64,000 nt of DNA from Candidatus Hydrogenedentota bacterium (GCA_963668025.2 CAXXTH010000017.1:352001-416000), one strand, 5' to 3'. Numbered from the stretch's first letter, positions 1,976 through 56,259 are shown. Notes: a model not told the origin generated them from the sequence alone. A program made the numbers and translations.

Positions 1976-2545
1976 TTAGAGCGCGTAAAGAAACGGCGAC
2001 AATATCGAGGCCGATCCGCTCACGAGCATAAGCAGCCCAAGCAGCACGAGTGCGAGGACCACCGGGGCGAGCCAGAACAGCTTGCGCGCCCATAAAAAAG
2101 CCCCCAATTCGATCAGCGCATTACGGTGTCCGGACGCGCCGTCCGTCTGCGACTCAGCAGGCTCCCAATAGGTGGGCGCATCGGGCTTCCACCGGCGCTT
2201 GAGCGGATCTTTGCCGAGTAAAGACATCACCGCGCCCATGGGCGTGATAAGCCCATAGAACACCACGGCCAGCGTAGCGCGTGTCATGAACCAATTCAAG
2301 GCGAGGGCGAGCTTGAGCCAGCCCGCGAGCAACGGCATCAGGAGGCCAGGCGTGGCGAGTCCCGCAAGGGCCATGAGCGCGGCTATGTCGATGAAGAGCC
2401 ATGGAGGGCCGCCCATTTCGCCGGCGCGCCAACTGTGGAAGCCCCACCGTAGCAGGCCCAGCACCGCAACTGCCGCTGCCATGACAAGTCCGAACCGGCG
2501 CTGTTCGCGGCGGCTATGGATGTCTATTTCGTCAAACGTGTCCAT
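1976..2545 (-). CDS. SxtJ-family membrane protein fused to a C-terminal DUF5989 (SxtK-like) peptide
   Basis: RRFGL...VFYGLITPMG...GKDPL...TYW (SxtJ), then ELGAFLWARKLFWLAP...SPFLYAL (DUF5989). Confidence 0.8.
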   Translation of the reverse strand: MDTFDEIDIHSRREQRRFGLVMAAAVAVLGLLRWGFHSWRAGEMGGPPWLFIDIAALMALAGLATPGLLMPLLAGWLKLALALNWFMTRATLAVVFYGLITPMGAVMSLLGKDPLKRRWKPDAPTYWEPAESQTDGASGHRNALIELGAFLWARKLFWLAPVVLALVLLGLLMLVSGSASILSPFLYAL

Positions 2546-16482: not shown

Positions 16483-16513
16483 GAATCCTCCCATGAACGG
16501 AGGTTGGCCTGGC

Positions 16514-16543
16514 ATTCGCATTCATTCGCGTCTATTCGCGGTT
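16514..16543. repeat. Solo arm of a 10-nt-period repeat
   Basis: ATTCGCATTC-ATTCGCGTCT-ATTCGCGGTT; a related solo arm lies at 620-639. Confidence 0.65.
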
Positions 16544-16621
16544 CAAAAATGGACTCCATGGCCCTTATGGGATACAATTCCGCCCGATAAATGCAATCGC
16601 CCCATGTCAAGGAGAAATTTC

Positions 16622-22611: not shown

Positions 22612-23703
22612 ATGCGCCAAAATAGCACTAAACACAGCAGTGGTTTCACGTTAATTGAGTTGCTTGTGGTAATTGCGATCATCGCGATTCTAGCAGCCAT
22701 ATTACTGCCTGCGCTCGCACGAGCGCGGGAAGCCGCACGGCGGGCAAGCTGCCAATCCAATCTGAAACAATGGGGCATTATTTTCAAGATGTATGCCGGG
22801 GAGAACAAGAGCGGGTATTTCCCTCCCAAACAGCAATATAGTAATTATGACTGGTTCATTCCGATGGGTGTTGGCGCGCATGAATTGTTTCCCGACTACT
22901 GGAATGACGCCAGCATCGTAGTATGCCCTTCCGACCCGAGGGGTGTCGGCAACAACCCGTTGGCCACCGGCGCTTCCGAGTACTTTTATATGCCGGAAGA
23001 TATCGGCGAGGCAGTGCGAAATGTTGACACCAGCGTGAATCCTGAAGTGGCTAAGGTTTGCCAAATGACCTTGTTGTCCAATCCCACTTCTTATCTCTAC
23101 ACGCCATGGGCCGTACAGACAATGGCGCAATTGTTTGACATCATGTGGCTCGAAGCAGGATGGGCCGGTGTCTACAAAGAAGTGACCGGTGAAACCTATC
23201 CATATCGGGTAGCCTTGTGGCCAGGAGGGGCTGGTAGCGTCGTAGAAAAAGTAGGATGCCCCGCTACATGGCTCTTCATCAATTACTTGCCCTACATAGG
23301 TGAAAAAGATATCACCTCCGACTGGCTCGCCATTGGCGGCTACCGCAATAACCGCGCCAGTGCCGATGAAGATGGCGCTGCACTTCCCTCCCAATATTAT
23401 AAGCTGCGCGAAGGGATTGAGCGGTTTTTCATCACGGATATCAACAATCCCGCGTCAGGCAGCATCGCCCAAAGCCAGTTGCCCGTCATGTGGGACGCAT
23501 GGTCTGAAAATGAGAACACCGCCAATGACTCCGCTATTGTATATTTCAACCATGTGCCCGGCGGAAGTAATGTTCTTTATGTGGATGGACACGTCGAGTT
23601 CGTGCGTTTCGGCTCAAAATTCCCGATACATGTGCCAGAGGACGGAATTTCCATACTCGAAGATTGCCCTGGACGGTTGAACCTATTCGGAGGCTGGGGT
23701 TGA
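22612..23703 (+). CDS. Prepilin-type N-terminal cleavage/methylation, DUF1559, H-X9-DG domain protein
   Basis: [43 protein letters not shown] and [18 protein letters not shown]. Confidence 0.95.
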
Positions 23704-28519: not shown

Positions 28520-30046
28520 TTCAATTCAAACGCCAACTACAACGTCTTGTTTCATGAACACGATGGTGAAGAGGCCGCTTCGCAAATCCAGGCCTTCGAG
28601 GACACTTGGCGCTGGGACCAAACAGCCGCGCGCGCCTATCAGGAAACCGTCGAGGCGGGCGGCCAGCTATCCGAGACGCTTCAGGCGTTCCGCAAGATCG
28701 TCGGCGCTTCGGACATGCTCGCCTATCTCGCCATGATGGCCCCGCGGTTAGCAGAATTAAAACGTGTTCTCAAGCTTACTGGGTCAATATATTTGCATTG
28801 TGACCCTACGGCGAGCCACTACCTCAAACTACTGTTGGATGCGGTATTCGGATCCAAACAATTCCTCAATGAGATTACGTGGAAACGCACGACTTCACAT
28901 AATGACCCGCAACGCTTTGGACGAATAACGGATCGAATACTGTTCTATGCAAAAGGGAAGGCACGAACATTTATCCGCCAGAGTGGCGATTACTCAGAAA
29001 CACAGTTATCTAGATATAAATACGAAGATGGTGGAGGAAAATATCGAGCAGAAAATCTGACCGCTCCTCATTTTTCATCCACCAGGACATGTGAATGGAG
29101 AGGAACCCATCCGGGAAAAAACCGGCAGTGGCGGTTTGGGATAGATGAACTAGAGCGCCTGTACAACGAAGGCCGGATTTTACTTCGCAGCGATGGCTGC
29201 CCCCGCAAAGATGGCTTGAAAGAATACTTGCATGAAGCGCCAGGCCAGGCATTACAGGATCTGTGGGCTGACATCCTCGTCGGTCCAACCTCATCCGAAC
29301 GGCTCGGTTATCCCACGCAGAAGCCTTTGGCTCTCCTGGAACGCATCATCAGTGCATCTTCTTATGAAGGCGATGTCGTCCTTGATCCGTTTTGCGGCTG
29401 TGGCACAGCCATTGACGCCGCGCAAAAATTGGGCCGCCGATGGATCGGTATTGACATCACCCACCTCGCCATCAACCTAATCCGCCACCGCCTGCGCGAC
29501 ACCTACGGCGACGATATCGAATCCTCTTATCATGTCATCGGAGAGCCTGCCTCCGTGCCCGATGCCCGCGTTCTGGCGGAGCAAGATCCGTATCAATTCC
29601 AATGGTGGGCGCTGAGTCTTGTAGGCGCGCGGCCTGTCGAGCAGAAAAAAGGCTCCGACAAAGGTATTGATGGGCGCATCTATTTCCATGAAGGAGATGG
29701 CGAAACCCGCCAAGTGGTGTTATCCGTCAAGGCGGGCAAATCCCAACCCGCGCATGTGCGTGATTTGCTGGGCGTTCTCGAACGGGAGAAAGCCGCCATC
29801 GGCGTGTTGCTCCTCATGCACCCGCCCACCAAGCCCATGCGCGAAGAAGCGGCTACGGCGGGCTTTTACACATCGCCCTGGGGCCAGCATCCCCGGCTGC
29901 AAATCCTTGCCATTTCCGATCTGCTGGAAGGCCGGCGCATCAATATGCCCCGGCTCACGGGTTCCGATAAAACCTACAAAAAAGCCAAAAAACACGTGCA
30001 AAACGGCGGCTCCCAACTGGTGCTCGAAGAGAGCGGCGAATACTGA
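28520..30046 (+). pseudogene. 5'-truncated N6/N4 DNA methyltransferase fused to an Mrr-like endonuclease domain
   Basis: The frame begins FNSNANYNVLF without the preceding DPP, with an in-frame TAG at 28481. It retains GSIYLHCD, YPTQKP, LDPFCGCGT and a C-terminal DKGIDG...SVKAG. Confidence 0.75.
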
Positions 30047-30160: not shown

Positions 30161-31234
30161 ATGACACCCAAAGCGCGCGTGTTTGCCACTTTTAATCATC
30201 AGATTCCGGATCGCGTTCCTATCGATTATAGCGCAAATCTTGATATTGACCGGCGGCTGAAAGAACACTTCGGCCTGAAGCCTGATGATTGGGAAGGCCT
30301 GCTGGAAGTTCTCGGTGTGGATTTCCGCGCGATAGGCGCTCCGTACACCGGGCCAAAGCTTCACGCGGACATCCCCGATCGCGGTGTGCAGGTGGATGAT
30401 TGGGGAATTCATACGCGCTGGATCGAGCACCCATCCGGCGGTTATTGGGATTTCTGCGATTTCCCGCTGCGCAACGCCACCGAAGAAGAAGTGGCCAATT
30501 GGCCGCTGCCGAATCCGGATGATTATGACTATAGTGGAATCGCCGATTTGTGCCAGCATCATGGACAATACGCCTGTTTCGTGGGGCATCCAGGAACAGG
30601 CGATATCATCAATTGCAATGGCATGCTGCGCGGCATGGAACAAACGCTGATCGATCTGGTGACGGAAGATCCAGCAGGGCTCTTATTGGCCCGCCGCCGT
30701 ACAGACATCCATCTGAAGATGCTCGAACGGATACTCGATGCCGCCAAGGGCGGTGTGGATTTTATGTGGCTGGGCGAAGACCTCGGCTCGCAAATCGCCC
30801 CCATGATTAGCTTGGATACCTTCCGCGCGCAGATCCGTCCATTGCATCAACAGCTAATAGACCTCGCAAAAAGCTACAATCTCCCGGTAATGATTCATAC
30901 ATGCGGCTCCAGCAGTTGGGCGTATGAAGATTTTATCGAAATGGGGATCAACGTGGTCGATACCCTTCAGCCCGAAGCCGTGAACATGTCGCCGGAATAC
31001 CTCAAGAAGGCCTTCGGCGGGCGGCTCGCATTCCATGGCTGCATCTCGACCGCAGGCCCAGTCGCCACAGGCTCTGTCGAGGAAACCGTGGCCTATTGCC
31101 GGAATACCCTCGATATCATGATGCCTGGCGGCGGGTATTGTTTTACGCCCACACATGCGCTTCAAGACAACTCGCCGACGGAAAATGTCTTGGCCATGTA
31201 TGAGACGGGGAAAACATATGGGACATACCGCTAA
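30161..31234 (+). CDS. Uroporphyrinogen decarboxylase-like (URO-D/MtaA-CmuA superfamily) protein
   Basis: PDRVP, LRGME, GEDLG, HTCG and PGGGY motifs. Confidence 0.85.
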   Translation: MTPKARVFATFNHQIPDRVPIDYSANLDIDRRLKEHFGLKPDDWEGLLEVLGVDFRAIGAPYTGPKLHADIPDRGVQVDDWGIHTRWIEHPSGGYWDFCDFPLRNATEEEVANWPLPNPDDYDYSGIADLCQHHGQYACFVGHPGTGDIINCNGMLRGMEQTLIDLVTEDPAGLLLARRRTDIHLKMLERILDAAKGGVDFMWLGEDLGSQIAPMISLDTFRAQIRPLHQQLIDLAKSYNLPVMIHTCGSSSWAYEDFIEMGINVVDTLQPEAVNMSPEYLKKAFGGRLAFHGCISTAGPVATGSVEETVAYCRNTLDIMMPGGGYCFTPTHALQDNSPTENVLAMYETGKTYGTYR

Positions 31235-42950: not shown

Positions 42951-44852
42951 CTACTGCATCCGGGCCTGCACGCTTGGGAAGCGGTTCATGTCCGTGTGGG
43001 GCAGAAACAGGGACGCCATGTATTCGTCCATGTAGCCCGGCGTGTTGCTCAGATCCATATAGGTCATTCGGCGGGCGATGTCAAGCTGGCGTTTCCGGTA
43101 CTCTTGCGACACGGCCACCATGTAGGAGCCCATGAGCGAGGCGTTGCCGATGTATTGGAAGCGTTCCCGGGGGATGTCGGGCGCGAGGCCGAGGATGATG
43201 GTCTTCTCGAGATCGAGGAAACGGCCAAAACCGCCCGCGATATAAATTCGCGCCAGATCCTCGAAGCCGATGCCAATGTGCTGAAGCATAAGCGAGCAGG
43301 CGGAATAGATGGCCCCCTTGGCGCGCACGATGTTTTCGATGTCCATCTCGCTGATGGCGATGGCTTCGCCGTTGGCGCTTTCTTCGGCGGAAGCGATGAT
43401 ATACCGCGCCCGCTTGCCGTCGTTCTTGATGTACGGCGACGGGCGGTCGCGGTCGAGTTTTCCCGCGGGATTGAGCCATCCCGTGATGAACAGGTTCGCC
43501 AGCAGCTCGATCATGCCCGAGCCGCAGATGCCTTGGGGCGCTCCTCCGCCAATGGTGTGATATCGCGCCGCGCCGGTATCGGGGTCCACATCGACGCTCT
43601 CGATGGCCCCGTGTGCTGCGCGCATGCCACACTGGATGCCGCCACCTTCAAAGGCGGGGCCTGCGGAACAAGCGCAGCTCATCAGAAAATCGCTATTGCC
43701 CACCACGAGCTCGCCGTTTGTGCCGATGTCGATAAACAGGCTGATCTCCTCGGATTCGGCGGCGAGGTCGGTGCATAGGAGGCCCGCCGTGATGTCGCCT
43801 CCTACGTAGCTGCCATTGTTGGGCGAGAAACAAATCCAGGAATCGGGATTGATCGGCAGGCCCACTTCGGCTGCGGTGACATAGGGCACTTCGAGCACCG
43901 TGGGAGTGTACGGATCTAGCCGGATGTACTCTGGATCAAGCCCCAGAAGCAAATGGTTCATGGTGGTGTTGCCCGAGATGACGGCATTGGTGATCTCCTC
44001 GGGTTCAACGCCGTTCTCTTCGGCGGTTTTTGTGATGAGCGTATTGATGGTGTCCAAGACACGCATACGCAATTCTTCGAGGCGTTCGGGCCGTTTCGCA
44101 TAGTTGATGCGGCTGATGATATCGAGGCCGCACACCACTTGGCCGTTATACGCCGTGTGGGTGGACATGATCCGCGCCACGGTAAGGTTGATGAGCTGCA
44201 CCGCCACGGTCGTGGTGCCCACGTCCACGGCAATGGCGTAATGGCGCGTGGTCTGGTTGCCCGGCTCGATGCGGATGACGTAGAGCTTGTCATCCTCGCG
44301 GACAAGCGTCACCGTGACCGCGCCATCCTTGGCGCGAAGGCTGCCCGCCAAGGTGCGTAGCACGCGCAAGGAATACACCACCTCGTGGCGGCCCCATTGA
44401 AGCTGGATCGCGCGCGTCAGCCGGTCTAGATCCGACAACCCGTCTTCCGGCTGGGGCTGCGGCACGAGAAAGAGCCACTTGACCGCGAGGGGATCATACT
44501 CCCATTCGCGGGGCAGCAATTCGCGGCGGATGAGGTAGGTCTCGTCGCCGTCGGCGAATTGGCCGCCTTCGCGGCCCGAGGGGCGGGGCACTTCAACCGT
44601 GATGTCCGATGTGAGCAAATGGGTCTTGCAAGCCAGCACATAGCCGTCGGCAATCATGGTGGGAGGAAGTGCGCCCCGGCCTTCCGACTCGATCTTGCCT
44701 TGTGTGATGCGGACGATGCATTTGCCGCATGTGCCCTTGCCGCCACAGGGCGACTCGACTTCGACGCCCGCCTTGCGGGCCACATCGAGCAGTTCCGCGC
44801 CAGGCAAGGCCTCCGCGATGGTTCCACTAGGCTCGAATGTCACCTTTGGCAT
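42951..44852 (-). CDS. acsV: Corrinoid reductive activator (RACo/AcsV; 2Fe-2S plus ASKHA DUF4445)
   Basis: CGGKGTCGKC...LAC, DVGTTT, SGNTTM, YVGGD, DIGTNGE, GPAFEG, GICGSG and AGGFG motifs. Confidence 0.92.
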   Translation of the reverse strand: MPKVTFEPSGTIAEALPGAELLDVARKAGVEVESPCGGKGTCGKCIVRITQGKIESEGRGALPPTMIADGYVLACKTHLLTSDITVEVPRPSGREGGQFADGDETYLIRRELLPREWEYDPLAVKWLFLVPQPQPEDGLSDLDRLTRAIQLQWGRHEVVYSLRVLRTLAGSLRAKDGAVTVTLVREDDKLYVIRIEPGNQTTRHYAIAVDVGTTTVAVQLINLTVARIMSTHTAYNGQVVCGLDIISRINYAKRPERLEELRMRVLDTINTLITKTAEENGVEPEEITNAVISGNTTMNHLLLGLDPEYIRLDPYTPTVLEVPYVTAAEVGLPINPDSWICFSPNNGSYVGGDITAGLLCTDLAAESEEISLFIDIGTNGELVVGNSDFLMSCACSAGPAFEGGGIQCGMRAAHGAIESVDVDPDTGAARYHTIGGGAPQGICGSGMIELLANLFITGWLNPAGKLDRDRPSPYIKNDGKRARYIIASAEESANGEAIAISEMDIENIVRAKGAIYSACSLMLQHIGIGFEDLARIYIAGGFGRFLDLEKTIILGLAPDIPRERFQYIGNASLMGSYMVAVSQEYRKRQLDIARRMTYMDLSNTPGYMDEYMASLFLPHTDMNRFPSVQARMQ

Positions 44853-44884
44853 GGGGTGCTTCCTGGTTACAAAAGCAATCATTT

Positions 44885-45065: not shown

Positions 45066-46412
45066 CTACGCCGCGAGCACGTTTTTTATGAAACTCTCGA
45101 GATCGCCCGCTTCTTGCGGCCCTACGATGATTTCCCAGCCGGGCATGGCTTCCTCGAGTTCACCCGAGATCTGCGCCACGTAGCCGGGAATGACGATTTT
45201 GCGGTTCTTGGTTTTCGATTCGAGCTCGAATTCTTTGGCGAACTTGCCGATCTTGTCGCCGCCAAATTTGCCCGCCGCCCAGGATGTCAGCACGCTCATG
45301 CCCTCACATTCGGGTATCAGCAGCCAGGCCGAGAGGCCCGCGTTTTCGATTTCGCCCGACACGATGAAGTAGGTGAGCGAGAAGTTGGTGGTGACGAATG
45401 TCGGGCTCGTATCCGTAGGCTCGCCGATGGCATAAATCTTCGGCTCGACTTGGATGGGCTTCTGCGGGTCGGTATAAATATTTTGTCGCAGCGCCAGCAG
45501 CGACACCATCACCGCCGGGTCGAATTCGGGCAGAATCACAATGCCGCCGTACTTGGTGATCTCGAGGCCCGCCTCGACGGCGTCATCCATGGCGTTGCCT
45601 GTGTTCACGTAGGCGAGGGACGGGTAACCGAGCGTCTTGAGGCCCGTCTTGAGCGCGCCGCGCCGCATGATGATATGGTTTTGCACGTGTTCGCAAAGGC
45701 TGTCCGCTCTCAATTCAAGCAGGATATCGCGAAATTCCGCCGCCATGCAGGTTTCGACCATGGCCGCGAGGGCGTTGAAATTGTCCGCCGCCAACGCCAG
45801 CACGGCCCCATTCGCCTTAGCCGCTTCACACAGCGGGCCCACGGTTTCGGGCGTGGCTGATGCAAGGATGGGCTTGCGGCCCTTGAGCGTTTCAGACGCC
45901 GCCATAAGCAGGCTGGAATCGTCCGTGCGCACCACGATTGCGCCGCCCCACAAGGCCGCCACGCGCTCGATGCAGGCCAGATAGGCGTCGCGCGAGCCGC
46001 TCGAGCAGGCCACGCTGATGGCGTTGAGGCGGAGCTGTTCGCCGACGCGGTCCAGCGTGTAATCGGCCACGGCCTTCACGCGCGCTTCGAGTTCCGCAAT
46101 GTCCATGGCGTCATCCACGGCCACGCCGATGCCCGTCTCGTGGACAAAGGTTTTTTCATGGCGGTATGCAACCGTTTCTCCGCCCACGGAGAAGGCCCGC
46201 TCCCCCGCGCCGATAACGATGGTGCGGATGGGCGGTTCAGCAGCCGCACCGAGGATGGCCTTGGCTTCCTCGGACGCATAAGGGCATTCGGATAACTCGG
46301 CTTTCTTCGCCGCGAGCTTCATGGCGAAGGCCAGGCACGTGTTCGAGCCGCATTCCTTGCAATTCGTTTTCGGGAGCAGTTTTTGTATCTGCAAGCCAGT
46401 CAAGGGGGCCAT
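45066..46412 (-). CDS. acsC: Corrinoid iron-sulfur protein large subunit (CdhE/gamma)
   Basis: LPKTNCKECGSNTCLAFA...CPY, IYTDPQKP, TTNFSLTY and GMSVLTSWAAGKF motifs. Confidence 0.96.
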   Translation of the reverse strand: MAPLTGLQIQKLLPKTNCKECGSNTCLAFAMKLAAKKAELSECPYASEEAKAILGAAAEPPIRTIVIGAGERAFSVGGETVAYRHEKTFVHETGIGVAVDDAMDIAELEARVKAVADYTLDRVGEQLRLNAISVACSSGSRDAYLACIERVAALWGGAIVVRTDDSSLLMAASETLKGRKPILASATPETVGPLCEAAKANGAVLALAADNFNALAAMVETCMAAEFRDILLELRADSLCEHVQNHIIMRRGALKTGLKTLGYPSLAYVNTGNAMDDAVEAGLEITKYGGIVILPEFDPAVMVSLLALRQNIYTDPQKPIQVEPKIYAIGEPTDTSPTFVTTNFSLTYFIVSGEIENAGLSAWLLIPECEGMSVLTSWAAGKFGGDKIGKFAKEFELESKTKNRKIVIPGYVAQISGELEEAMPGWEIIVGPQEAGDLESFIKNVLAA

Positions 46413-46434: not shown

Positions 46435-49400
46435 TTATTCGGGCCGGTTGTTGGCGGACAGCTTCTGTACGTTGCGCCGCAGGATTTCCAATGATTCGGG
46501 ATGGTGCAAGATGAGCAAGTCCGCGCCGCTGGTGAGCAGCGTCATAGCGGTCTGCACTTCCCACAACACCGCGCGTTTCTCGATAGCGCCCCAATTCGGG
46601 AACGACGACTCGAGCGCATGGCCTTCCTTGGCCTTCCAGGCCTCCTGGCCCACATGCCCGAACAAGGGGAAGGCCAGCGACGCATCGCCGCCGAATCCTG
46701 TTAGGCGGATGCGTTCCATGACCGAGAAGGTGTATTCGAGGCCGTAACCCAGTGCGCCCACCATGGGGTCCATGATAATGCGGTCGCGAGGCAGGTCCAT
46801 GTTACCGAGCAGGATATTGAGCTGTTTGGCGAGGTTCACGTCAATCGGGCTCTGCGCCACGACGCAATGGCCATAGGCCAGCGCCGCGCCCGCTATGGTG
46901 CGGTAATTGTCGCCTTCCACCCAATTGAGCAGGAGGCGCTCGCCCGCGCAACCCGAGGCGACTTTTTTCATCACCTCATTGGTGGAATCGAAGTGGCTAT
47001 GGCCGGTGATGATGAGCGGCACATCCACGGCGGCGAGGATATCCTTCACCAGCGCCAGGGCGTCATCGGGACTTTTGCCACCCTTTTCGGGATGCGTGCC
47101 TTCGAGGCGCACCGAGATGATCTCCGCACCGTATTGCTCGACGGCGGCCTTCGCCATCTCGGCGGGCTTGGCCGCGAGATCGCCCCAGACGCCCCGCAGC
47201 ACCGGCGACAGCTTCGGGCTAACGGTGTCGAACACTTCAAGCGCAAAGACCGGCGAATTCGGAATGGAGCCCTCGAAATAGTGGAACGGCAGGCAATTCT
47301 GGCCGCCAAGGGCCACCGTGCGGCCACGGGTGCCGCCATCGGCGGATGTCGCGCCCAGCACCACGGCCTGAATGGTCTCGCCGGGCGATTCGCTGGGCAG
47401 GGCGAAAGCCGACACTTCAGCCAGCTTCTCCGCCGCATAACGCGTGGGAGCTTTCACCTCAACCACTTCGATCACCGGTTTCACCGGCGCTTCCGCGATT
47501 GGAGAGAGTGGGAGCGTGGCAGGCGCGGGAGCCATTGGCGGGGCGGCAATGGCCATGCCCAGTGGCGCAATGCCTTGTAACACCCCCGCAATCGCGCCTA
47601 CCACGTCCACAAGCAGTTCTCTTTTTAGGTCAGGAGAGGGCTTCACTTCAAGTTCTTCTTTCAGAGAGGCCTTGATATCCTCCATGATCGATTTCCGCAG
47701 TTCCGGCACTAGCTCCGTCTTGAGCGTGTCTTTCAACTGCGCGGATACTGTATCTGTAATCTGCTTAAATAATGCTGACAATAGATCGCCAGCTCCGCCG
47801 TTGCTGCCCGGAATGTGGGCTGCCGCAGGCGGCGCCGGGGCTGGCGGCGTGGAAAGCGCGGCGGCCGATTCGGCGGGCTTGGCCTTTGGTGCGATGGCAA
47901 CGAATTTAGGCTCCGGTTTCGGGGCCGCCTTGGGCGCTGAGGCCTCTGCCTTGGCTTCGGGCGAGGCCATTTCGTAGACATCTTCCTTGCCTACCCACAT
48001 CGTCGCCATGTCTTCCATCGTGACGGCGGGATGGCCTACTTTTTCCATGTAGGCTTTGATTTCCTGTGGATCCGTGGCGATGGTTTCATCGGCGATCTTG
48101 CCCCACAAATCCGGGAGTTCCAAGGCTTTCGCGCGCGACTTAAAATCGTCCGCCAGGATATCCTTGAGTTCCTTCGGCATCCAGACGACGCGCGCAAGCC
48201 CGCCATCGGCGTAGAGGAACTTCGGGCTTGAGAGGAAGGCCTTGCCCACGCCCATGAAGCCGGGCGTCTGGACGCCGCCGCCCACCATGCCCGCGAGCGA
48301 ACTGAACGGCATGCCGATGGGCGTGTCGCCAGGGAATTCGCGATTGACGATCATGACGCCGTTGCACTCGGGCACATAGGCCACGATGCTCTCGAAACAG
48401 CCGCACGAGGTCATGGGGTTGTCCATGATGCTGTAGGCCGTGAAGCTCTTGATGGCCTTGTGCGAGTTTTTATACACGTATTCGTTGACGCCTTCCCATA
48501 TGCCGCGCTTCGGGTCAAGGCAGCGCCCCTTCTCGACGGGCTGGTTCGGGCCGGTCTCATCGATCTCGTGGGCAGCCTTGCCATCGAGCCAGTTGTACGC
48601 GCCGCACAGGCCGAGGCGTTCGGGCGTGATGATGCATACATGATCTGGCGCGAATGATTGGCACAGCAGGCAGCTATAAAATGTCTCGACGGATTCGTCG
48701 GTCATGGCCGCCAAGCGGTGGTTGCGCTCGATATACACCTTACGCGCATGGGCGAGGCGTCGCTCGACCTCTTCTTTTTCCGTCACCAGCGTGACCTTGA
48801 CCTTGTCCACGATGGCCGGATATTCATCCAGGAATTTGGCATGTAGAATCTCGCCATAGTGTTTCAGACGCAAACCTTTAGCGAAACCGCCCTTGCTGAC
48901 GCGCGTCCACACGATGTCGCGCTGGCCCATATGCCAAAGGCCTTCCGCGCCGTTCAGCAGATGGTGAATCTGGCGTTCGAGAATAGGCTCGAAATCGGAC
49001 TGCATCTTGCGGCCCGCCACTTCGACCCAAATGGCCAGCGGCAGCGCCGTGCCCTCGGGCACCTGGTCGATATCCGGGCCGATAATCTCGATCTCGCCGT
49101 CATTGATATCGTCCAGTTCGACCATGGTGGCGAATTCGAAGGCGGGCGTGATGTTGCCGCCGAATTCGGCATGCACGTCGGCCTTCCGGATGCGTTCGCC
49201 CTCGAAGGCGGGGCCGTAGGGCACGGGCACAGGCACATTTGCCACTTTAATTTTGCAGCCGCGCACCTCGAGGGAGCGTTCGACGATTCTATCAAGGGGC
49301 ACATTGCTCACCACGTGTTCGTAGGTGCAGACGCCCGTGGGCAGGATCTCGGGGATATCCGTGTCGGCGATGGTCGGGAAACCGTAATTGATCGCGCCCG

Positions 49401-50181
49401 CCGCCGCTGCGTATTTCTCCTGGTCCACCTCGCCCAGCGCCATGACAAAGGCGAAGATGCGGTTCTTGTTGTAGCGCAGGTTTCGCTCGAAGTCGCCGGG
49501 CTGCACGCCGCCGAACGATAGAGCGGCGCGGCTGGCGAAACCGAGGGCATAGATGGCCGCCGACACATCATGGCCGAAGGGCACGAGGCGCGTCTCCCAG
49601 CCCAACTGCACGCCTTCGGCGGCGAGCTGTTCTGCGAAGGTCACGCCATCGACCGCACCCGCCATGAAGACATACAGGTTCTTCTCCTGCAACTGCCGGG
49701 CGATCTTCACCGCCGTGGCGTTGTCCGGCGCGGCTCCCACCACGGCCGCGAAACCGGGCGCGGTGCCATCCACGAATTCGATGCCGCGTTCGCGCATGAT
49801 CACGTCGTTGGCCGCACCGAGCCAGATCCCATCGACGGGATTCGGGCCGATCAGATATTTGCACGCTTCGATGGCCTCGAAGGCAAACAGCGTAGCCACG
49901 CCCGCGTCGAGTGCGTCGCCCAGATAGGGCAGCCATACATTCTCGGATGGCGGCTCGGGCAGCAGGTTGTGGCAGTCTTGCATCACCTCGACGAGGTCGC
50001 TTAGTTTCTGCACTTTCCGGCCCGTAAACGAATAAATGACCGGAAGATAATAGGCCGTGCCGGGGAATCCCACGGGATGCTCGGCCCCCTTGGCTTCGAT
50101 AGTCCGCGCAAGCATGGCGTTGGCCCGCTCGACGGCTTCCTTGGCTCCTACGATGGCGTCGGTGCAAATGGCCTTAGACAT
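46435..50181 (-). CDS. acsB: Fused acetyl-CoA synthase (AcsB) plus CoFeSP small subunit (AcsD)
   Basis: About 730 N-terminal aa with A-cluster ligands (CLLCQSF, HVC, LCGAY, SCGCFE); Pro/Ala linker; C-terminal GGTRG...PFHYFEG...ALEVFD...SPIDVNLAKQLN...ALGYGLEY...MERIRL (AcsD). Confidence 0.93.
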   Translation of the reverse strand: MSKAICTDAIVGAKEAVERANAMLARTIEAKGAEHPVGFPGTAYYLPVIYSFTGRKVQKLSDLVEVMQDCHNLLPEPPSENVWLPYLGDALDAGVATLFAFEAIEACKYLIGPNPVDGIWLGAANDVIMRERGIEFVDGTAPGFAAVVGAAPDNATAVKIARQLQEKNLYVFMAGAVDGVTFAEQLAAEGVQLGWETRLVPFGHDVSAAIYALGFASRAALSFGGVQPGDFERNLRYNKNRIFAFVMALGEVDQEKYAAAAGAINYGFPTIADTDIPEILPTGVCTYEHVVSNVPLDRIVERSLEVRGCKIKVANVPVPVPYGPAFEGERIRKADVHAEFGGNITPAFEFATMVELDDINDGEIEIIGPDIDQVPEGTALPLAIWVEVAGRKMQSDFEPILERQIHHLLNGAEGLWHMGQRDIVWTRVSKGGFAKGLRLKHYGEILHAKFLDEYPAIVDKVKVTLVTEKEEVERRLAHARKVYIERNHRLAAMTDESVETFYSCLLCQSFAPDHVCIITPERLGLCGAYNWLDGKAAHEIDETGPNQPVEKGRCLDPKRGIWEGVNEYVYKNSHKAIKSFTAYSIMDNPMTSCGCFESIVAYVPECNGVMIVNREFPGDTPIGMPFSSLAGMVGGGVQTPGFMGVGKAFLSSPKFLYADGGLARVVWMPKELKDILADDFKSRAKALELPDLWGKIADETIATDPQEIKAYMEKVGHPAVTMEDMATMWVGKEDVYEMASPEAKAEASAPKAAPKPEPKFVAIAPKAKPAESAAALSTPPAPAPPAAAHIPGSNGGAGDLLSALFKQITDTVSAQLKDTLKTELVPELRKSIMEDIKASLKEELEVKPSPDLKRELLVDVVGAIAGVLQGIAPLGMAIAAPPMAPAPATLPLSPIAEAPVKPVIEVVEVKAPTRYAAEKLAEVSAFALPSESPGETIQAVVLGATSADGGTRGRTVALGGQNCLPFHYFEGSIPNSPVFALEVFDTVSPKLSPVLRGVWGDLAAKPAEMAKAAVEQYGAEIISVRLEGTHPEKGGKSPDDALALVKDILAAVDVPLIITGHSHFDSTNEVMKKVASGCAGERLLLNWVEGDNYRTIAGAALAYGHCVVAQSPIDVNLAKQLNILLGNMDLPRDRIIMDPMVGALGYGLEYTFSVMERIRLTGFGGDASLAFPLFGHVGQEAWKAKEGHALESSFPNWGAIEKRAVLWEVQTAMTLLTSGADLLILHHPESLEILRRNVQKLSANNRPE

Positions 50182-52129
50182 TGAGCGCTCTCCGGTCTTT
50201 CATGTCGAACAGTTTACGTTCCGCTTTCTTGTTGATCCCCAGGGCGTCGCGCTTCTTCTCGATATGGGCGCAGATCACCTCGATAGCCTTATGGACATCG
50301 GACTCGTAATGGAACTTGGCCCCCACTTCGGCCTCGAGGCCTTGCGTGAGGTATTCGGTGACATTCTTCGAGCCCATGGTGTGGAAAGGATGGCCCAGCA
50401 CCACATCCACGCCCGACGCCACGAAGTAATGGCCGATAGCCACGGCCTTTTCGCTCATCCACTCGGGGGCCGCGCCGATGGCGGGCACCTCGGAGAGGTC
50501 GTTGCCGAGTCCGCCTTCTTCAACGATGTACGTAGCGGCCATGAGAATACGGGAGTTGTCCACGCACGAACCCATATGCAGCACCGGCGGAATGCCCACC
50601 GCCTCGCACACTTCGCGCAGGCTGTCGCCCGCCATTTGAAGAGCCGTCTCGGGCGTGAGCAGCCCCGCTTTGCCGCAGGCCACCGCCGCGCAACCCGTCT
50701 GCAAGACGAGCACATTGCGCTTGATCAGCTCCTTGGCCAACGTGAGGATGTATTCATCCATCTTGCCGTGGCGCGCATTGGTGCAGCCCACGATGCCGCA
50801 CACGCCGCGAATGCGGCCCGTGATGATGGCGTCATTGAGCGGGCGGAAGCTCTTGCGGAATGTGCCGCCTAGGATGTTGAAAATCGTCTCCGTGCTGAAT
50901 CCAGCCACGAGCGGACTGCGGTGATCGGGGATGGCCACCTTTTTCGGATCCCGGTTCGGGAAATTATCAATGGCTTTCCAGAGAATCGCCTTGGCGGACG
51001 CCAGGCCGTCCTCGGGCTCGTAGTTCACCGGCTCCGCGCCGATATTCATGGCGATGGGGCTGGTGGTCAGAATCTTGGTGTGGTAGCACTTCGCCACTTC
51101 CGGCAGCGAGGCCATGCAGCACTGCACATCGGTGATCATGAGTTCGACGGCGCCCGTGATGATGGCGAGTTCCTGCTGAAGGAAATTACCCGCCACGGAT
51201 ACGCCGTGGCGCATGAGCACTTCGTTTGCCGTGCAGCAGATGCCCGCGAGGTTGATCCCCTCCGCGCCCACTTTCTTCGCGGCGGCCACCATCTCGGGGT
51301 CGTTCGCCGCCACCACCAGCATCTCCGTGAGCGCCGGTTCATGGCCATGCACGAGGACATTCACCATTTTTTCTTCGAGGACGCCCAAATTCGCCTTGGC
51401 CTTAACGGGCTTTGGCGTGCCGAACAGGATGTCGCTCACGGCAGTGGCGATCATTGAACCGCCCCAGCCATCGGCAAGGGACGTTTTGAGTGCGCCTCGA
51501 ATGATGTTTTTATAGTCATGGTCCACGCCGATATGGGTGCGGTGCAGGCATTCCACTACGGAGGCGTCCACGCCGCCCGGTGCGATTTTCATGTGGTCCC
51601 ACACGCTTTGGCGTGGCTTGGGCGCCAGTTCGAGGGTTTTCAGTTTGCCTTCCTGCAAGCGGAATTCATCCAGAAACAGCTCGGCCAGATTGCGCACGAC
51701 ATCAAGGGTGTCCACACCCGCTTCCTCGACGCCCCATGCCCGGGCGGCGGAGCGCAGCTTGCGCTCGTCGCTGATCTTGTAATCGCCGCCGTTGCCTTCG
51801 CCGACGCGCTTAAGCAACAGCACCAAGTGGCGGCCATGGTCCGAATGGGCCGCCGTGCCAGCCGCCACTTCACGGAGCAGATTGCGCGCCACGACGGTGT
51901 CCAGGGTCGCGCCGCATACGCCCGGCGTGAAGTCAGATATCTTGCAAGGCCCCATATGGCAAATGCGGCAGCACGTGCCTTCCGAGCCAAAGGTGCAGGG
52001 CTTACCTTGTTCATCCGCCCTCGAGAAAGCATCGTTCTCGACGCCGTCCGCATCGGCTTTCCTGAGCATTTCGATGCTTGCCTGATCAACGGCCAAGTCT
52101 TCGATGCGCCGCTCACGATCATCCGCCAT
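50174..52129 (-). CDS. cooS: Anaerobic Ni-CO dehydrogenase catalytic subunit (AcsA)
   Basis: CTFGSEGTCCRICHMGPC, HSDH, HGHEP, GICCT, DVQC, GCTN, TGC, GSCVDNSR and PEWMSEKA motifs. Confidence 0.97.
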   Translation of the reverse strand: MADDRERRIEDLAVDQASIEMLRKADADGVENDAFSRADEQGKPCTFGSEGTCCRICHMGPCKISDFTPGVCGATLDTVVARNLLREVAAGTAAHSDHGRHLVLLLKRVGEGNGGDYKISDERKLRSAARAWGVEEAGVDTLDVVRNLAELFLDEFRLQEGKLKTLELAPKPRQSVWDHMKIAPGGVDASVVECLHRTHIGVDHDYKNIIRGALKTSLADGWGGSMIATAVSDILFGTPKPVKAKANLGVLEEKMVNVLVHGHEPALTEMLVVAANDPEMVAAAKKVGAEGINLAGICCTANEVLMRHGVSVAGNFLQQELAIITGAVELMITDVQCCMASLPEVAKCYHTKILTTSPIAMNIGAEPVNYEPEDGLASAKAILWKAIDNFPNRDPKKVAIPDHRSPLVAGFSTETIFNILGGTFRKSFRPLNDAIITGRIRGVCGIVGCTNARHGKMDEYILTLAKELIKRNVLVLQTGCAAVACGKAGLLTPETALQMAGDSLREVCEAVGIPPVLHMGSCVDNSRILMAATYIVEEGGLGNDLSEVPAIGAAPEWMSEKAVAIGHYFVASGVDVVLGHPFHTMGSKNVTEYLTQGLEAEVGAKFHYESDVHKAIEVICAHIEKKRDALGINKKAERKLFDMKDRRALNV

Positions 52130-52161: not shown

Positions 52162-52512
52162 CTACTGATTGCCCTTAGGAGCAAAGGTCTTTTCTTCGGT
52201 CGTCCATTGCATAAACTCCACGACCGTTCCCGCGTCGTATATAAAAGCGGCCACCACGTTCTCCATGGCCTGGAACGGGCCAAGAATCACGTTCTTGCCT
52301 GAGATTTCCCGTTCCAAATCATCCGTCGTGAAGGCCAAGTGCGGCTGCATGCGCAACGGGCCCGTGACGGGCGAATCGGATTCATAGCGCAAATACTCGA
52401 TTCGATACGGATGATTGCCCGGCTCCGTCACGAACACCTTCGTCTCCGCCACGTAAATCTCGCCGTCGTGTTTTTCATCCGTCGGCAGTCCCAAATGATG
52501 AAACTCTCGCAT
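52162..52512 (-). CDS. Small VOC/glyoxalase-like protein
   Basis: FHHLG...IEYL...PHLAF...DDL...VEFM pattern; GGGAG RBS. Confidence 0.65.
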   Translation of the reverse strand: MREFHHLGLPTDEKHDGEIYVAETKVFVTEPGNHPYRIEYLRYESDSPVTGPLRMQPHLAFTTDDLEREISGKNVILGPFQAMENVVAAFIYDAGTVVEFMQWTTEEKTFAPKGNQ

Positions 52513-52529
52513 GGCTTTCTCTCCCTTAG

Positions 52530-52577
52530 GTACCATGGCCGTCCCAGCCATGCGCATGGGCGGGACGCCCATGCTAC
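52530..52577. repeat. REP doublet within the acs operon
   Basis: GTACCATGGCCGTCCCAGCCATG-CG-CATGGGCGGGACGCCCATGCTAC; the right unit is identical to 13569-13591. Confidence 0.8.
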
Positions 52578-52616
52578 GGTATTCAAGATCATGAGCCGCT
52601 CTAGCAAAAAATGGCG

Positions 52617-53378
52617 TCAAGCCGCCATGTATCCGAGCATGTGTTCCGCCGCTTGGTATGCGGCGCTATTCTTGGATAGCTCGAACACAGGCGCGCCGGT
52701 GGCGTCTTGCCTGGCCACCTCGGGGTCTTCCGGCAGGCCGCCAAGCACCTTCACGGGAGTGCCCGCGAACAGCTCTTCGGCGCGGGCCAGGCAGGCCTCA
52801 TCTCGAAGCCGGTTAATCACGACACCCATGTGACCCGCCTTCATTTCCATCTCGAGGGCGAGGTCATATAGCCGCCGCGCCGTCAAAATGCCGCGCGCGG
52901 AAGGGTCGGCCACGAATACCAGCCAATCCGTTTGCTGCACGGTGCGGCGGCTCAGATTTTCAAGTCCTGCTTCGTTATCTATCACCACGGCGGGGTACTG
53001 GCCAGATAATTTCGATAGCACGCCCCGCAACACATTATTCGCGTAACAGTAACAGCCGGGGCCTTCCGAGCGGCCCATGGCGATCAGGTCGAACCCTTGC
53101 GCCTCGACCAGCGACTCCTGGATCTTCATGTCCAGCAAGTCCTGTTTGCTGACACCCCCCGCAATGCCCGCTTGCGCGATGGCCTTGGCCTCCTCGCGCA
53201 CGCCGCCCACGGTGTTCGACACCTGCACGCCCAGCAGCGCATCGAGGCACATGTTCGGATCGGCGTCCACGGCCAATACGGGGCCTTTGCCCCATTCGCC
53301 CAATAGGCGCACCGCTAACGCCGCCAGCGTGGTTTTCCCTACGCCGCCCTTGCCTGTCACCGCCAGCGTCCAGCTCAT
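52617..53378 (-). CDS. cooC: CooC/AcsF nickel-insertion ATPase
   Basis: GKGGVGKT, DADPN, GCYC and DNEAGLENLSR motifs. Confidence 0.93.
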   Translation of the reverse strand: MSWTLAVTGKGGVGKTTLAALAVRLLGEWGKGPVLAVDADPNMCLDALLGVQVSNTVGGVREEAKAIAQAGIAGGVSKQDLLDMKIQESLVEAQGFDLIAMGRSEGPGCYCYANNVLRGVLSKLSGQYPAVVIDNEAGLENLSRRTVQQTDWLVFVADPSARGILTARRLYDLALEMEMKAGHMGVVINRLRDEACLARAEELFAGTPVKVLGGLPEDPEVARQDATGAPVFELSKNSAAYQAAEHMLGYMAA

Positions 53379-54289
53379 CCCAAGATCTTCTTCATGGTTT
53401 CAGCGACGGCTTTAATATGCGCGGGCGAAGAGCCACAGCAACCGCCAATGAATTTCGCACCAGCCTTCAACAGCACCGGAACGGCATGCTCATATACATC
53501 AGGCGTGGCCTTGAACACTGTCTTGCCGTTTTCATCCACCATGGGTTTGCCCGCGTTGCCTTTCACCCAGATGGGCACATCATCGCCGCATTGGGCGAAC
53601 AACTCGGCGATATGGGCGAAAGTCTCGATGCCCGCCCCGCAGTTCGCGCCCACGAAGCTCGCGCCCATGGACTTCGCCAGTTCATAGGTCTGGAGGATGC
53701 TGACGCCCATCATGGTGAATTCATTGTTTTCACCCGAATCGAAGGTCATCGACACGCCCACCGGGAGTTCCGGCGCGCCGCGCAGGCAGCCGCGCAATGC
53801 CGCCGCCACTTCCACCAGATCGCTCTGCGTCTCGACGACAATCGCATCAGCCCCGCCATCGGCGAAAGCCTTGGCTTGTTCCGCGGCGGACGCCTCGACC
53901 TCTTCCTCGGACACTTCGCCCATCATGACGATCTTGCCGCAGGGACCGAGCGAGCCGAATACATAGGCTTTGCCCAATGCCGCTTTCTTCGAGATCTCCG
54001 CACCGGCTTTGGTCAGTTCATACGCCCGCTCCGCGATGCCGTGCTTGGCGAGTACGATGTGGTTGCTGTTGAAGGTATTGGTCAGGATGACCTGCGAGCC
54101 CGCGTCCACATAGCCCTTGGCCACTTGGAATACCTTGTCCGGCTCGTCCACATTCCACGTATCACACATCTGGCCCGGTTTCGCGCCGAGTTTCGCCATT
54201 TCGGTGCCCCAAGCGCCGTCCGTGCATAACGGGGGGAGGTCTTTGAAGTTTTCTTTGGTCAGTTTCTTCGTCGCATCAAACTGCATCAT
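53375..54289 (-). CDS. Stand-alone homocysteine S-methyltransferase domain (MetH N-terminal module)
   Basis: DGAWGT, AGSQVILTNTF, GSLGP, ETQSD, and the Zn ligands GANCG and GGCCG. Confidence 0.9.
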   Translation of the reverse strand: MMQFDATKKLTKENFKDLPPLCTDGAWGTEMAKLGAKPGQMCDTWNVDEPDKVFQVAKGYVDAGSQVILTNTFNSNHIVLAKHGIAERAYELTKAGAEISKKAALGKAYVFGSLGPCGKIVMMGEVSEEEVEASAAEQAKAFADGGADAIVVETQSDLVEVAAALRGCLRGAPELPVGVSMTFDSGENNEFTMMGVSILQTYELAKSMGASFVGANCGAGIETFAHIAELFAQCGDDVPIWVKGNAGKPMVDENGKTVFKATPDVYEHAVPVLLKAGAKFIGGCCGSSPAHIKAVAETMKKILG

Positions 54290-54318
54290 ATGCCTCGCTT
54301 TCTTATGGGCTCCCGCCG

Positions 54319-55386
54319 TTAAAATCCGTACTTGCTCTTCAGCAGTTGGCTCGTCGCGCCGAGTTTCTGGAACACCTGCTCCGCGTCCGCCACTTCCATC
54401 GAGCCCGTGCCGCACGACGGCGTGATAAAGGCCTGTTCCAGAATCACTTGCTTGTCGATGCCCGCCTTCTGCGCTAGATTGTCTGCAAGCGTCTCAAACC
54501 TCGCCGCCAAGCCTTCCGGACTCTGTTCACGGATAGCAGGACTTGTCGGTACTACGCCCCAGGCCAGCGCGTTATGGTTGTCCATAAGATGGCGCTTCAT
54601 AGGCTCGGGATACAGGGCCACGGTTTCACCATAGTCAAATGCATCGAAGTTCAGGATATCGACACCCGCGTCCACGAGGATGGACCACTCGGTGTTGCCG
54701 CAGCAGTGGATGCCCGCGAATGCGCCTTCCAGGTGGACCGCCTCGATCACTTCGTTCAACCGCGCCACCACGTCATCGCGTTGCACGGACACGTAGGTCG
54801 AACTGCCGAAGGCCGACAAGATGGGCTCGTCAATGAAGCAGATGATATTTTCCGCATAGGGTTTGAACTTCTGGATCTGCCAGCGACATTTCATGGCCAG
54901 GGCCTTCACCACGACATCCAGGAACTCTTCGTTGTAATAAATGGCGCGCTTGTTCTCGTCCACGATGGTCAGTGCAAAACTGATGGGGCCGGTGGTTTGG
55001 CATTTGATGTACGGCAGCTTGGCCCCCAGCGATTTCACTTTCGCCTCGAGGGCGGGAATGCCCGCGCTGAACGCCGGGCTGATGGCCCCCGCCGAGCAGT
55101 CGTTCTCTTCTTCCGCCAGCATGTAGCCTTCATAAAACGCCGCCAGCTCTTCCGAGTAATCGCCCGAGGTGTCGATGTACATGCGCGACTTCGCCTCGTC
55201 GATTACGACGCGCGGGACGCCCTCGGAATACTGGATCTCCATCTGCTCGTGCAAGCCCAGCTTGGGCAATTGCGGCCAGATGGGGGCTGTGGGGATGCTG
55301 CTGAAGATCAGCTCGATGGCCTTCGCGGGGTCCGCATAAGGCAGCGAACCAATCGCCGTGGCTGTGCATTTCGCCTTGATGTCCAT
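54319..55386 (-). CDS. Core MetE-like (MesB-type) methionine synthase
   Basis: TAIGSLP, WPQLP, TGPIS, IDEP, GIHCC, WGVVPT and TPSCG motifs; no MetE N-terminal half. Confidence 0.8.
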   Translation of the reverse strand: MDIKAKCTATAIGSLPYADPAKAIELIFSSIPTAPIWPQLPKLGLHEQMEIQYSEGVPRVVIDEAKSRMYIDTSGDYSEELAAFYEGYMLAEEENDCSAGAISPAFSAGIPALEAKVKSLGAKLPYIKCQTTGPISFALTIVDENKRAIYYNEEFLDVVVKALAMKCRWQIQKFKPYAENIICFIDEPILSAFGSSTYVSVQRDDVVARLNEVIEAVHLEGAFAGIHCCGNTEWSILVDAGVDILNFDAFDYGETVALYPEPMKRHLMDNHNALAWGVVPTSPAIREQSPEGLAARFETLADNLAQKAGIDKQVILEQAFITPSCGTGSMEVADAEQVFQKLGATSQLLKSKYGF

Positions 55387-55455: not shown

Positions 55456-56259
55456 TTATACCAGCTTGGCTTCACTTCCAATGCGCGCTTTAGCGCTCTC
55501 CCACAACTCCTCAAATACGCCTCTTAGCCGTTCATCGGCGATATCCACCAGCGGTGCGCTGTCGCGGTCCGCCCGGCGAATCGTTTCGTCATACGGCAGC
55601 CAGCCCAGCACATCCTCGCCCGCGCACGCTTGCGTGATGAACGCATGGTCTTCCGGCGACGCGATTTTATTGGCGATGACCGCCACGCGCTGGACGCCGA
55701 TCTCCGCCGCCATGCGCCGCACCGCCGCTGCTGTTTCGACCGAACGCGCGCCGGGCTCCACCACCACCACCATGAGGTCCACGCCCTTGGCCGTCGCCCG
55801 GCCCAAATGCTCCAGGCCCGCTTCGAAATCAATAATGACGCAATCGTCTTTATACAGAATCACGTCCGTCATCAACGCCCGCAGCATCACGCTCTCGGGG
55901 CACGCGCACCCCGAGCCGCCGCTCTCGACCGCTCCCAACACCAGCAGATGAATGCCCCGGAATGAAGCCGATTCCTGTTCGGCGATATCCGACACATGGG
56001 GATTGAGTTTGAAAATTTGGCCGTATTGCTTGACCTTCGCGCCCGTGCGCTCCTCGATAAGGGCGCGCCGCTCCGAGAGGGGGATGATCGCGTTACGGCC
56101 TTCCAGAGGCATGCCGAGGGCCTCCGCCAGGTTCGCATCCGGATCAGCGTCCACCGCCAGCACGCGCAACCCTTCGGCAGCCGCCAAATGGGCGAACATC
56201 GCCGCGATAGTGGACTTGCCCACGCCGCCTTTGCCGCTGACCGCGATCTTGAATCCCAT
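55456..56259 (-). CDS. cooC: CooC nickel-insertion ATPase (second paralog)
   Basis: GKGGVGKS, DADPDANL, GCACPE and DFEAGLEHLGR motifs. Confidence 0.93.
   Translation of the reverse strand: MGFKIAVSGKGGVGKSTIAAMFAHLAAAEGLRVLAVDADPDANLAEALGMPLEGRNAIIPLSERRALIEERTGAKVKQYGQIFKLNPHVSDIAEQESASFRGIHLLVLGAVESGGSGCACPESVMLRALMTDVILYKDDCVIIDFEAGLEHLGRATAKGVDLMVVVVEPGARSVETAAAVRRMAAEIGVQRVAVIANKIASPEDHAFITQACAGEDVLGWLPYDETIRRADRDSAPLVDIADERLRGVFEELWESAKARIGSEAKLV

Follow-up and report, generated by a model that had tools for sequence, protein, structure and literature searches.

A 64,000-nucleotide stretch of a Candidatus Hydrogenedentota genome (GCA_963668025.2 CAXXTH010000017.1:352001-416000; hereafter the window) encodes acetyl-CoA synthase (ACS; AcsB) and the small subunit of the corrinoid iron–sulfur protein (CoFeSP; AcsD) as one polypeptide. 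The gene, acsB::acsD, is a single ATG-started open reading frame (ORF) of 1248 residues on the minus strand, at 46435..50181. Comparison with related sequences places the protein in what appears to be a large monophyletic clade with a covalent ACS–CoFeSP tether and a conserved, clade-specific linker helix, and the recognition of this clade is what is new here.

Both modules of the fusion are full length. Pfam assigns CODH_A_N (residues 23-110), CdhC (318-472), ACS_CODH_B_C (483-725) and CdhD (942-1234) along the chain. The NCBIfam AcsB equivalog NF040764 (CODH_ACS_al_bet) aligns with residues 11-725 at 1051 bits (cutoff 800), and model positions 2-704 of 705 are covered, which gives a complete AcsB including the A1 domain that binds carbon monoxide dehydrogenase (CODH). 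In a PDB sequence search, residues 7-725 match full-length ACS chains (7zkj_B, 1ru3_A and 1oao_C among them) from solved structures of the Carboxydothermus, Moorella and Clostridium enzymes, and 936-1245 match the small subunit of Moorella CoFeSP (4djd_D, 13-321 of its 323 residues) with an E-value of 2.6e-88. Residues 936-1242 also score 352 bits against the delta-subunit subfamily NF003376 (cutoff 280; model positions 13-312 of 313). The canonical Wood–Ljungdahl AcsD model NF040759 (WLP_AcsD) reaches 252 bits, under its cutoff of 430, which marks the AcsD module as a diverged branch, a delta subunit outside the narrow canonical group. Two full-length domain matches in an ORF of this length are far beyond chance. 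C504, C507, C516, C526, C593, G594 and C595, which we take from the Moorella enzyme to be the A-cluster ligand positions (CxxC...C...C and CGC motifs), are invariant across 43 fused homologs, among which mean pairwise identity is 0.73-0.76 for the AcsB domains and 0.66 for AcsD.

The fusion begins within the end of the preceding cooS gene: its ATG and the cooS stop codon share an overlap of 8 nt (ATGTCTAA), and a GGAG lies 8 nt ahead of the ATG. An internal start producing a separate AcsD was considered and rejected: none of the candidate ATG, GTG or TTG codons across residues 726-945 has a good Shine–Dalgarno sequence upstream, and Met positions vary among homologs.

AcsB and AcsD are separated by a linker of ~200 residues, arranged disordered-helical-disordered (Table 1). 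We modelled residues 310-1248 with AlphaFold2 (AF2; 24-row alignment; mean predicted local distance difference test score (pLDDT) 64, predicted template modelling score 0.46). The AcsD barrel is confident (pLDDT mostly 80-96); helices are predicted at 797-811, 814-843 and 851-868, and pLDDT falls below 50 at 731-797 and 866-914. The same succession of variable Pro/Ala segment, helix, second variable segment and conserved lead-in occurs in all 43 fused database homologs. Split AcsD proteins begin only at the equivalent of the last part of the lead-in (M..IPKEKWTGK). The distance from the AcsB end to the AcsD start is 130-270 residues in the 43 database homologs, and 75-81 in loci L017 and L018 of the genome survey described below.

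The first-pass annotation of this DNA fares well at this level. The uninterrupted 1248-residue frame that it described is borne out by the ORF listing and by a translation with 0 internal stops. Its full AcsB with all A-cluster cysteines agrees with Pfam, NF040764, the PDB chains and the invariance of the cysteines in 43 homologs, and its apparently complete AcsD with the score above the NF003376 cutoff and the end-to-end match to 4djd_D. Composition and AF2 reproduce the ~200-residue linker with two Pro/Ala-rich segments around a helical block, our scan of the linker codons likewise yields no convincing internal ribosome-binding site or start, and the approximate coordinates were correct to within a few codons.

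The conserved core of the helical block spans residues 853-870, with a family consensus of E-I/V-V-x-E-I-I-x-x-L-S-x-K-F-L-G; in the main subclade of fused proteins the helix reads roughly ...LKxELKxxLTKE(I/V)VxEIIxxLSxKFLG. Mean pairwise identity over 23 main-subclade linkers is 0.50 for this core, 0.21 for each disordered flank and 0.36 for the AcsD lead-in, a pattern in which the helix core is evidently under constraint. The window protein and its nearest relatives carry ~20 extra residues in the helical block (EDIKASLKEELEVKPSPDL; residues ~833-852, 47626-47685), which resemble a repeat of the preceding ELxxxLK pattern, and their helix core is somewhat diverged.

A profile built from the 23 linker sequences was searched against 1.84 billion representative proteins and gave 28 matches. 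Ten were fetched, including all four of 376-465 residues (the other 18 have 70-293). Of these ten, eight proved to be fused proteins, whole or fragmentary, and the other two unrelated proteins of repeat or coiled-coil type. Neither an archaeal CdhD nor a long AcsD standing alone was among the matches fetched. Equally, none of the 26 genuinely split AcsD ORFs in our survey has an N-terminal extension; all start at the barrel. Given a profile that finds no outside homolog and split AcsD proteins that begin at the barrel, the helix is, as far as these comparisons reach, a clade-specific invention, at most analogous to the archaeal helix considered below. One of the database entries (P0133, 376 residues) is identical to window residues 801-1163 at 361 of 363 positions and starts at an internal TTG codon (residue 801). 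Here the gene was called from a start within the linker, and such fragments can pass as stand-alone AcsD.

The architecture is widespread among uncultured bacteria. Residues 726-1248 (linker plus AcsD) were searched against a protein set of 5.8 billion clusters, restricting candidates to 686-2184 residues (7,997 scored, E<=1e-3). The query matches 1,134 proteins, each a cluster representative. PF19436 (ACS C-terminal) and PF03599 (CdhD) occur together in 120 of the 120 matches listed, most of which are 1,140-1,300 residues long. Where these proteins have names, they are called only 'acetyl-CoA synthase' or 'subunit alpha/beta'.

Genomic loci give the same picture. Two conserved AcsB peptides were searched against one genome per GTDB species, and the best 80 of 590 relatives were classified by their ORFs (numbered with an L prefix). 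Both parts lie in one unbroken ORF in 28 of the 80, four of these being cut by a contig end. Two further fused-type loci are interrupted: in L028 the reading frame changes within AcsB, and in L009 the linker contains a run of N. Separate acsB and acsD genes were found in 26 loci and acsB only in 24, including L025, which is cut off within acsB by the end of its contig. At 66% or more AcsB identity to the window, every locus apart from this truncated one is of fused type, and the clearly split loci are at most 64% identical. Several of the split relatives have acsD upstream of acsB, unlike the fused arrangement.

These surveys also address what the first-pass annotation had proposed to check. 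It had suggested a search for both domains in one polypeptide, which the 120 listed matches answer, and had named split genes in all close relatives as a result that would count against the fusion; the close relatives prove to be fused, none being clearly split at 66% AcsB identity or above. Its further concern, that the architecture might already be common and characterised, holds in its first half only. With 1,134 cluster representatives the architecture is abundant in sequence databases, where it is annotated automatically, and is hence no rarity; in the full-text literature searched, however, we found no description or mention of an AcsB–AcsD fusion, though subscription journals and supplementary tables may hold one.

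Trees of the two modules agree on a common ancestry. The AcsB tree (FastTree, 76 rows) leaves out partial segments from L003, L009, L010, L028, L035 and L075, L028 being kept through its longer AcsB ORF. It contains one 29-row clade, comprising 28 fused sequences and L025, with an SH-like support of 100. The larger of its subclades has 24 rows, and the window branches off early within it. Among split relatives, the nearest are clusters labelled Actinomycetota, in which acsD lies upstream of acsB. In the AcsD tree (FastTree, 55 rows, without the truncated L019 and L024), a branch with support 100 separates the 29 fused rows from the rest, and 1 change of state is required. Both are quick, unrooted trees without bootstraps, and show clustering rather than direction. 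Together with the conserved operon they indicate that the fused form derives from one old fusion and that its product has since been passed on as a unit, by inheritance or transfer. By the submitters' labels, the fused clade extends over Lentisphaerota, Verrucomicrobiota, Planctomycetota, Bacteroidota, Bacillota, Thermodesulfobacteriota, Spirochaetota, Acidobacteriota, Armatimonadota and others.

Set beside the characterised bacterial systems, in which CODH/ACS is accompanied by a free CoFeSP (Moorella thermoacetica, Carboxydothermus hydrogenoformans, Clostridium autoethanogenum; 1oao, 1ru3, 7zkj, 6ytt, 4djd, 2h9a, 9fzy), the window has the same catalytic modules. An AcsB of A1-A2-A3 layout with its cysteine motif, an AcsD barrel and separate AcsC, CooS, CooC and RACo (the reductive activator of CoFeSP) are common to both. 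The difference lies in connectivity: AcsB and AcsD of the characterised systems are separate proteins that meet transiently, whereas in the window they form one chain, with a ~200-residue linker and a conserved helix between them. Gene order differs too, acsB::acsD-acsC in the window as against the canonical bacterial acsB-acsC-...-acsD.

Known docking geometry offers a rationale for the choice of subunit. In a cryo-EM study of the C. autoethanogenum CODH/ACS–CoFeSP complex, the small subunit docks on ACS domains A1 and A3 during methyl transfer and the FeS domain of the large subunit contacts A3 (10.1101/2024.08.05.606187). AcsD is therefore the natural subunit to join to the A3 end, since its attachment to the A3 C terminus ties together two surfaces that must meet anyway.

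The fusion, the completeness of its modules, its spread and single origin, the conserved operon, the layout of the linker and the constrained helix are demonstrated at the sequence level; from them we infer the composition of the complex, a leash mechanism and a function for the helix. Taken jointly, we think it fairly probable that the chain stays intact, that AcsC and CooS are bound to it, that the linker works as a leash and that its helix is a specific binding module. AcsB, having kept A1, would still bind the CooS (AcsA) dimer, and the AcsD module would go on pairing with AcsC, the product of a separate gene and the bearer of the corrinoid and the [4Fe-4S] cluster. The resulting particle, (AcsA)2(AcsB::AcsD)2(AcsC)2, would have a methyl carrier unable to diffuse off and an ACS:CoFeSP ratio fixed at 1:1. 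With two segments totalling ~110 disordered residues, the leash would allow CoFeSP to leave its docking site on ACS yet remain at high local concentration, and swing to the loading methyltransferase, to the RACo activator and to the operon's MesB-like methionine synthase. Midway along the leash, the conserved amphipathic helix would bind a specific protein partner.

Several points weigh against this reading. An intact chain in the cell is an assumption; tethering is certain if it holds, and a permanently assembled complex, as the first-pass annotation proposed, would exist only in that case. AF2 confidence in the helix is low to moderate (pLDDT about 39-63), from per-residue output that carries no contacts. 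The helix core of the window protein has itself diverged, reading VVGAIAGVLQG against the consensus IIxxLSxKFLG. Two Syntrophales-labelled fused genes, L017 (2354-2578) and L018 (8176-8418), are without the helix and amount to natural helix-less variants, and a subclade labelled Acidobacteriota, Armatimonadota and NC10 (L026, L027, L029, L030) carries an unrelated conserved block, ...MAALQxSTAxxLLxAGANMLLM, so the fusion works without the helix of the main subclade. No acsE or other pterin-binding methyltransferase occurs among the window ORFs scanned with Pfam, nor were methyl-branch (folate) genes found among them; the CoFeSP loader is thus encoded elsewhere or among the unusual methyltransferase-like genes of the window. 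Lastly, the phylum labels are those given by submitters to metagenome-assembled genomes (MAGs) and may be unreliable, which leaves the breadth of the spread uncertain.

Archaea provide the closest precedent for a helix in this position. According to a preprint on the Methanosarcina acetyl-CoA decarbonylase/synthase (ACDS), the disordered N terminus of CdhD has a leucine-zipper helix through which CoFeSP is oligomerised to hexa- to octamers, and disordered tails are proposed to tether ACS to the CoFeSP scaffold (10.64898/2026.07.07.736967). The preprint contrasts a bacterial stable CODH/ACS plus free CoFeSP with this tail-tethered archaeal supercomplex, and states that bacterial AcsD does not conserve the N-terminal region of CdhD and that oligomerisation of bacterial CoFeSP is unreported (10.64898/2026.07.07.736967). 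The two systems are alike in having a helix within a disordered region just N-terminal to the delta barrel and in keeping ACS and CoFeSP together without a rigid interface. They differ in that the archaeal tether is non-covalent and its ACS, CdhC, is without A1, whereas the window protein is joined by a peptide bond and has A1 (CODH_A_N, 23-110). Oligomerisation is demonstrated for the archaeal helix; that of the window is known from sequence as amphipathic and conserved. Nor does the linker contain a recognisable CdhD-homologous disordered N terminus, judged by the linker profile (10 of 28 matches fetched) and by the long-form delta model NF003375, which stays under its cutoff.

This likeness raises a different role for the helix, in line with the oligomerisation domain that the first-pass annotation suggested: a coiled-coil-like self-association module that bundles tethered ACS–CoFeSP units into a convergent bacterial counterpart of the archaeal supercomplex. 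We regard this as possible but doubtful. The helix occupies the same position as the one reported in the preprint, embedded in disorder just ahead of the delta-subunit barrel (10.64898/2026.07.07.736967); it has hydrophobic residues every 3-4 positions, with L/I/V/M/F at 59% of a/d positions in the best heptad register, and its core is constrained (0.50 against 0.21 for the flanks). NF003375 (442 positions) aligns from residue 833, at 294 bits against a cutoff of 488. The linker profile, by contrast, shows no homology to archaeal CdhD tails among the 10 fetched of its 28 hits (from 1.84 billion representatives), prolines break the helices in the window protein, and the helix is lost or replaced in some lineages. 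In our judgement the strongly conserved ...EIIxxLSxKFLG end suggests a specific docking motif rather than a generic zipper. A complex prediction with four copies of residues 792-880 (23-row alignment) scored 0.10 against a mark of 0.42 and speaks neither for nor against self-association.

A broader proposal, that the fused clade builds, by convergence, a bacterial analogue of the ACDS supercomplex in which the helix either bundles units or clamps them to a shared partner (such as the methyltransferase, RACo or MesB), we hold to be unlikely. Were it true, the result would be a multi-enzyme particle channelling methyl groups between acetyl-CoA and methionine synthesis, and it would overturn the statement that bacterial CoFeSP neither oligomerises nor has an N-terminal assembly region.

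It is much less probable that the product is a polyprotein-like precursor, its Pro/Ala linker cut after translation to free AcsB and AcsD, with the fusion merely ensuring co-translation in equal amounts. Long disordered linkers are generally accessible to proteases, and the flanking segments here are poorly conserved, with an AcsB–AcsD distance of 75-270 residues. Yet the variable segments show no obvious conserved motif of a cleavage type, a conserved helix is unexpected in the middle of a discarded spacer, and no protease family is found among the matches of the neighbouring genes (cooC, cooS, acsC, RACo, MesB-like and methyltransferase-like). An assembly, sequencing or gene-calling artefact, in which a lost stop or frameshift joined two adjacent genes, is effectively refuted, for although two of the 30 fused-type loci are interrupted (L028, L009) and such regions are evidently error-prone in MAGs, the in-frame architecture is shared by 28 independent species-level loci and more than 1,000 database clusters, the in-frame helix is kept at the protein level, and split relatives are arranged differently (several with acsD upstream), their AcsD starting directly at the barrel.

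An intact, leashed ACS–CoFeSP chain would be of practical use. Of the Wood–Ljungdahl steps, the passage of the methyl group from CoFeSP to the A-cluster is the hardest to access, because the ACS–CoFeSP encounter is transient; it was captured by cryo-EM only recently (10.1101/2024.08.05.606187). A natural one-chain enzyme would supply structural and kinetic studies with a complex already stabilised, serve as a template for engineered tethered carbon-fixation modules and test how far flux is limited by the encounter. The division between bacteria and archaea drawn in the ACDS preprint (10.64898/2026.07.07.736967) is affected too, in that a large bacterial clade would be tethered as well. There is a consequence for annotation, too: with the fused proteins labelled only as ACS, surveys that seek a separate acsD may score these genomes as lacking it.

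Table 1. Coordinates of the acsB::acsD fusion, its parts and the neighbouring operon genes in the window.
Feature	Coordinates	Strand	Remarks
acsB::acsD fusion ORF	46435..50181	-	1248 aa, 134.3 kDa
AcsB module, residues 1-727	48001..50181	-	A1, A2, A3 with cysteine motif
Linker segment 1, residues 728-797	47791..48000	-	70 aa (A 20, P 13); Ala/Pro/Lys-rich, predicted disordered, length variable
Helical block, residues 798-875 (GDLLSALFKQ...GVLQGIAPLG)	47557..47790	-	three predicted helices
Linker segment 2, residues 876-913	47443..47556	-	38 aa (A 9, P 9); predicted disordered
Conserved 22-residue lead-in to AcsD, residues 914-935 (RYAAEKLAEVSAFALP..., RYAAEKLA...)	47377..47442	-	short predicted helix 916-921
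AcsD module, residues 936-1248	46438..47376	-	CoFeSP small subunit TIM barrel
acsC, CoFeSP large subunit (FeS domain and CdhD-type barrel)	45066..46412	-	NF003195 508 bits against cutoff 306; Pfam FeS and CdhD
RACo/AcsV, CoFeSP reductive activator	42951..44882	-	
cooS/acsA, Ni-CODH catalytic subunit	50174..52129	-	
cooC1, nickel-insertion ATPase homolog	52617..53378	-	
orf355, MesB-like core methionine synthase	54319..55386	-	fold search, motif spacing, ESM Atlas
cooC2, second CooC/MinD-family ATPase	55456..56259	-	

The genes around the fusion form a carbonyl-branch operon on the minus strand. Fused-type loci share the context cooC2-cooC1-cooS-acsB::acsD-acsC-RACo, with AcsC adjacent in 26 of 30, CooS present in 24, CooC1 and RACo in 22 each and CooC2 in 21. 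In the window, acsC starts 22 nt past the fusion stop and has AGGAG upstream. Between cooC1 and cooS lies orf152 (152 residues, 52162-52620, minus strand), which has only a weak FAD_binding_2 match (E 0.22). No homolog of it occurs in any of the 80 loci, and cooC1 abuts cooS in the other fused loci; orf152 would therefore be a window-specific insert or a spurious ORF. The methyltransferase-like genes of the window include one for a URO-D-family protein at 30161-31231.

The operon also encodes a candidate methionine synthase, orf355. Homologs 56-68% identical are present in 20 of the 30 fused-type loci, as against 3 of 50 non-fused loci, where identity is 36-40%. The protein has no sequence match in Pfam or the PDB (E<=10 in each). 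ESM Atlas puts it among 'methionine synthase family' clusters with a score of 0.97. Its AF2 model (pLDDT 92) returns cobalamin-independent methionine synthases (MetE) and URO-D proteins at the top of a fold search (1xpg_A, E 6.8e-08; TM-scores 0.53-0.61). Across 22 sequences H227, C229, D248, C325 and D186 are invariant and S14 nearly so, and the spacing of H227/C229/D248/C325 equals that of the zinc ligands 214/216/235/311 of Dehalococcoides MesB. The features looked for in a MesB are present in orf355, namely a MetE-type barrel, an H-x-C...D/E...C zinc site, the homocysteine-binding Ser and Asp residues and a setting among Wood–Ljungdahl genes.

MesB is described as a core methionine synthase that clusters with Wood–Ljungdahl genes and for which CoFeSP is the proposed methyl source (PMC7857596). 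The orf355 product resembles it in its MetE/URO-D-type barrel, zinc-ligand spacing and Wood–Ljungdahl operon setting (PMC7857596), a comparison made through published ligand positions rather than the MesB sequence, for a protein that has no Pfam match. We consider orf355 a probable second client of the tethered CoFeSP. Adjoining it is a stand-alone homocysteine S-methyltransferase domain protein (PF02574, the homocysteine-binding module of MetH; 53375-54415, minus strand), whose true start is probably near 54230. This S-methyltransferase-like gene occurs in 11 of the 30 fused-type loci and in 0 of the 50 non-fused loci; its product is a possible second methyl-CoFeSP:homocysteine methyltransferase in the operon.

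Elsewhere in the window, an SxtJ/DUF5989-like small protein (1976-2545, minus strand) and an adjoining carbamoyltransferase (2972-4783, minus strand) are reminiscent of saxitoxin-type clusters, but just these two genes are present. A 159-residue ORF (16493-16969, plus strand) aligns with no more than the first third of the catalytic domain of class-I cysteinyl-tRNA synthetase and appears to be a truncated cysS-like fragment; tRNA-Pro(CGG) follows ~0.8 kb downstream (17758-17846, plus strand), and the 400-residue minus-strand ORF that overlaps it is probably spurious. The protein encoded at 22612-23700 (plus strand) combines an N-terminal prepilin-type methylation motif with a DUF1559 domain, a combination typical of Planctomycetota and related bacteria of the Planctomycetes–Verrucomicrobia–Chlamydiae group; like the labels on the database proteins closest to the fusion, it hints at a source in that group or in related uncultured bacteria. 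At 28547-30043 (plus strand), an N6/N4 DNA methylase is fused to a NACHT-associated inactive restriction endonuclease domain.

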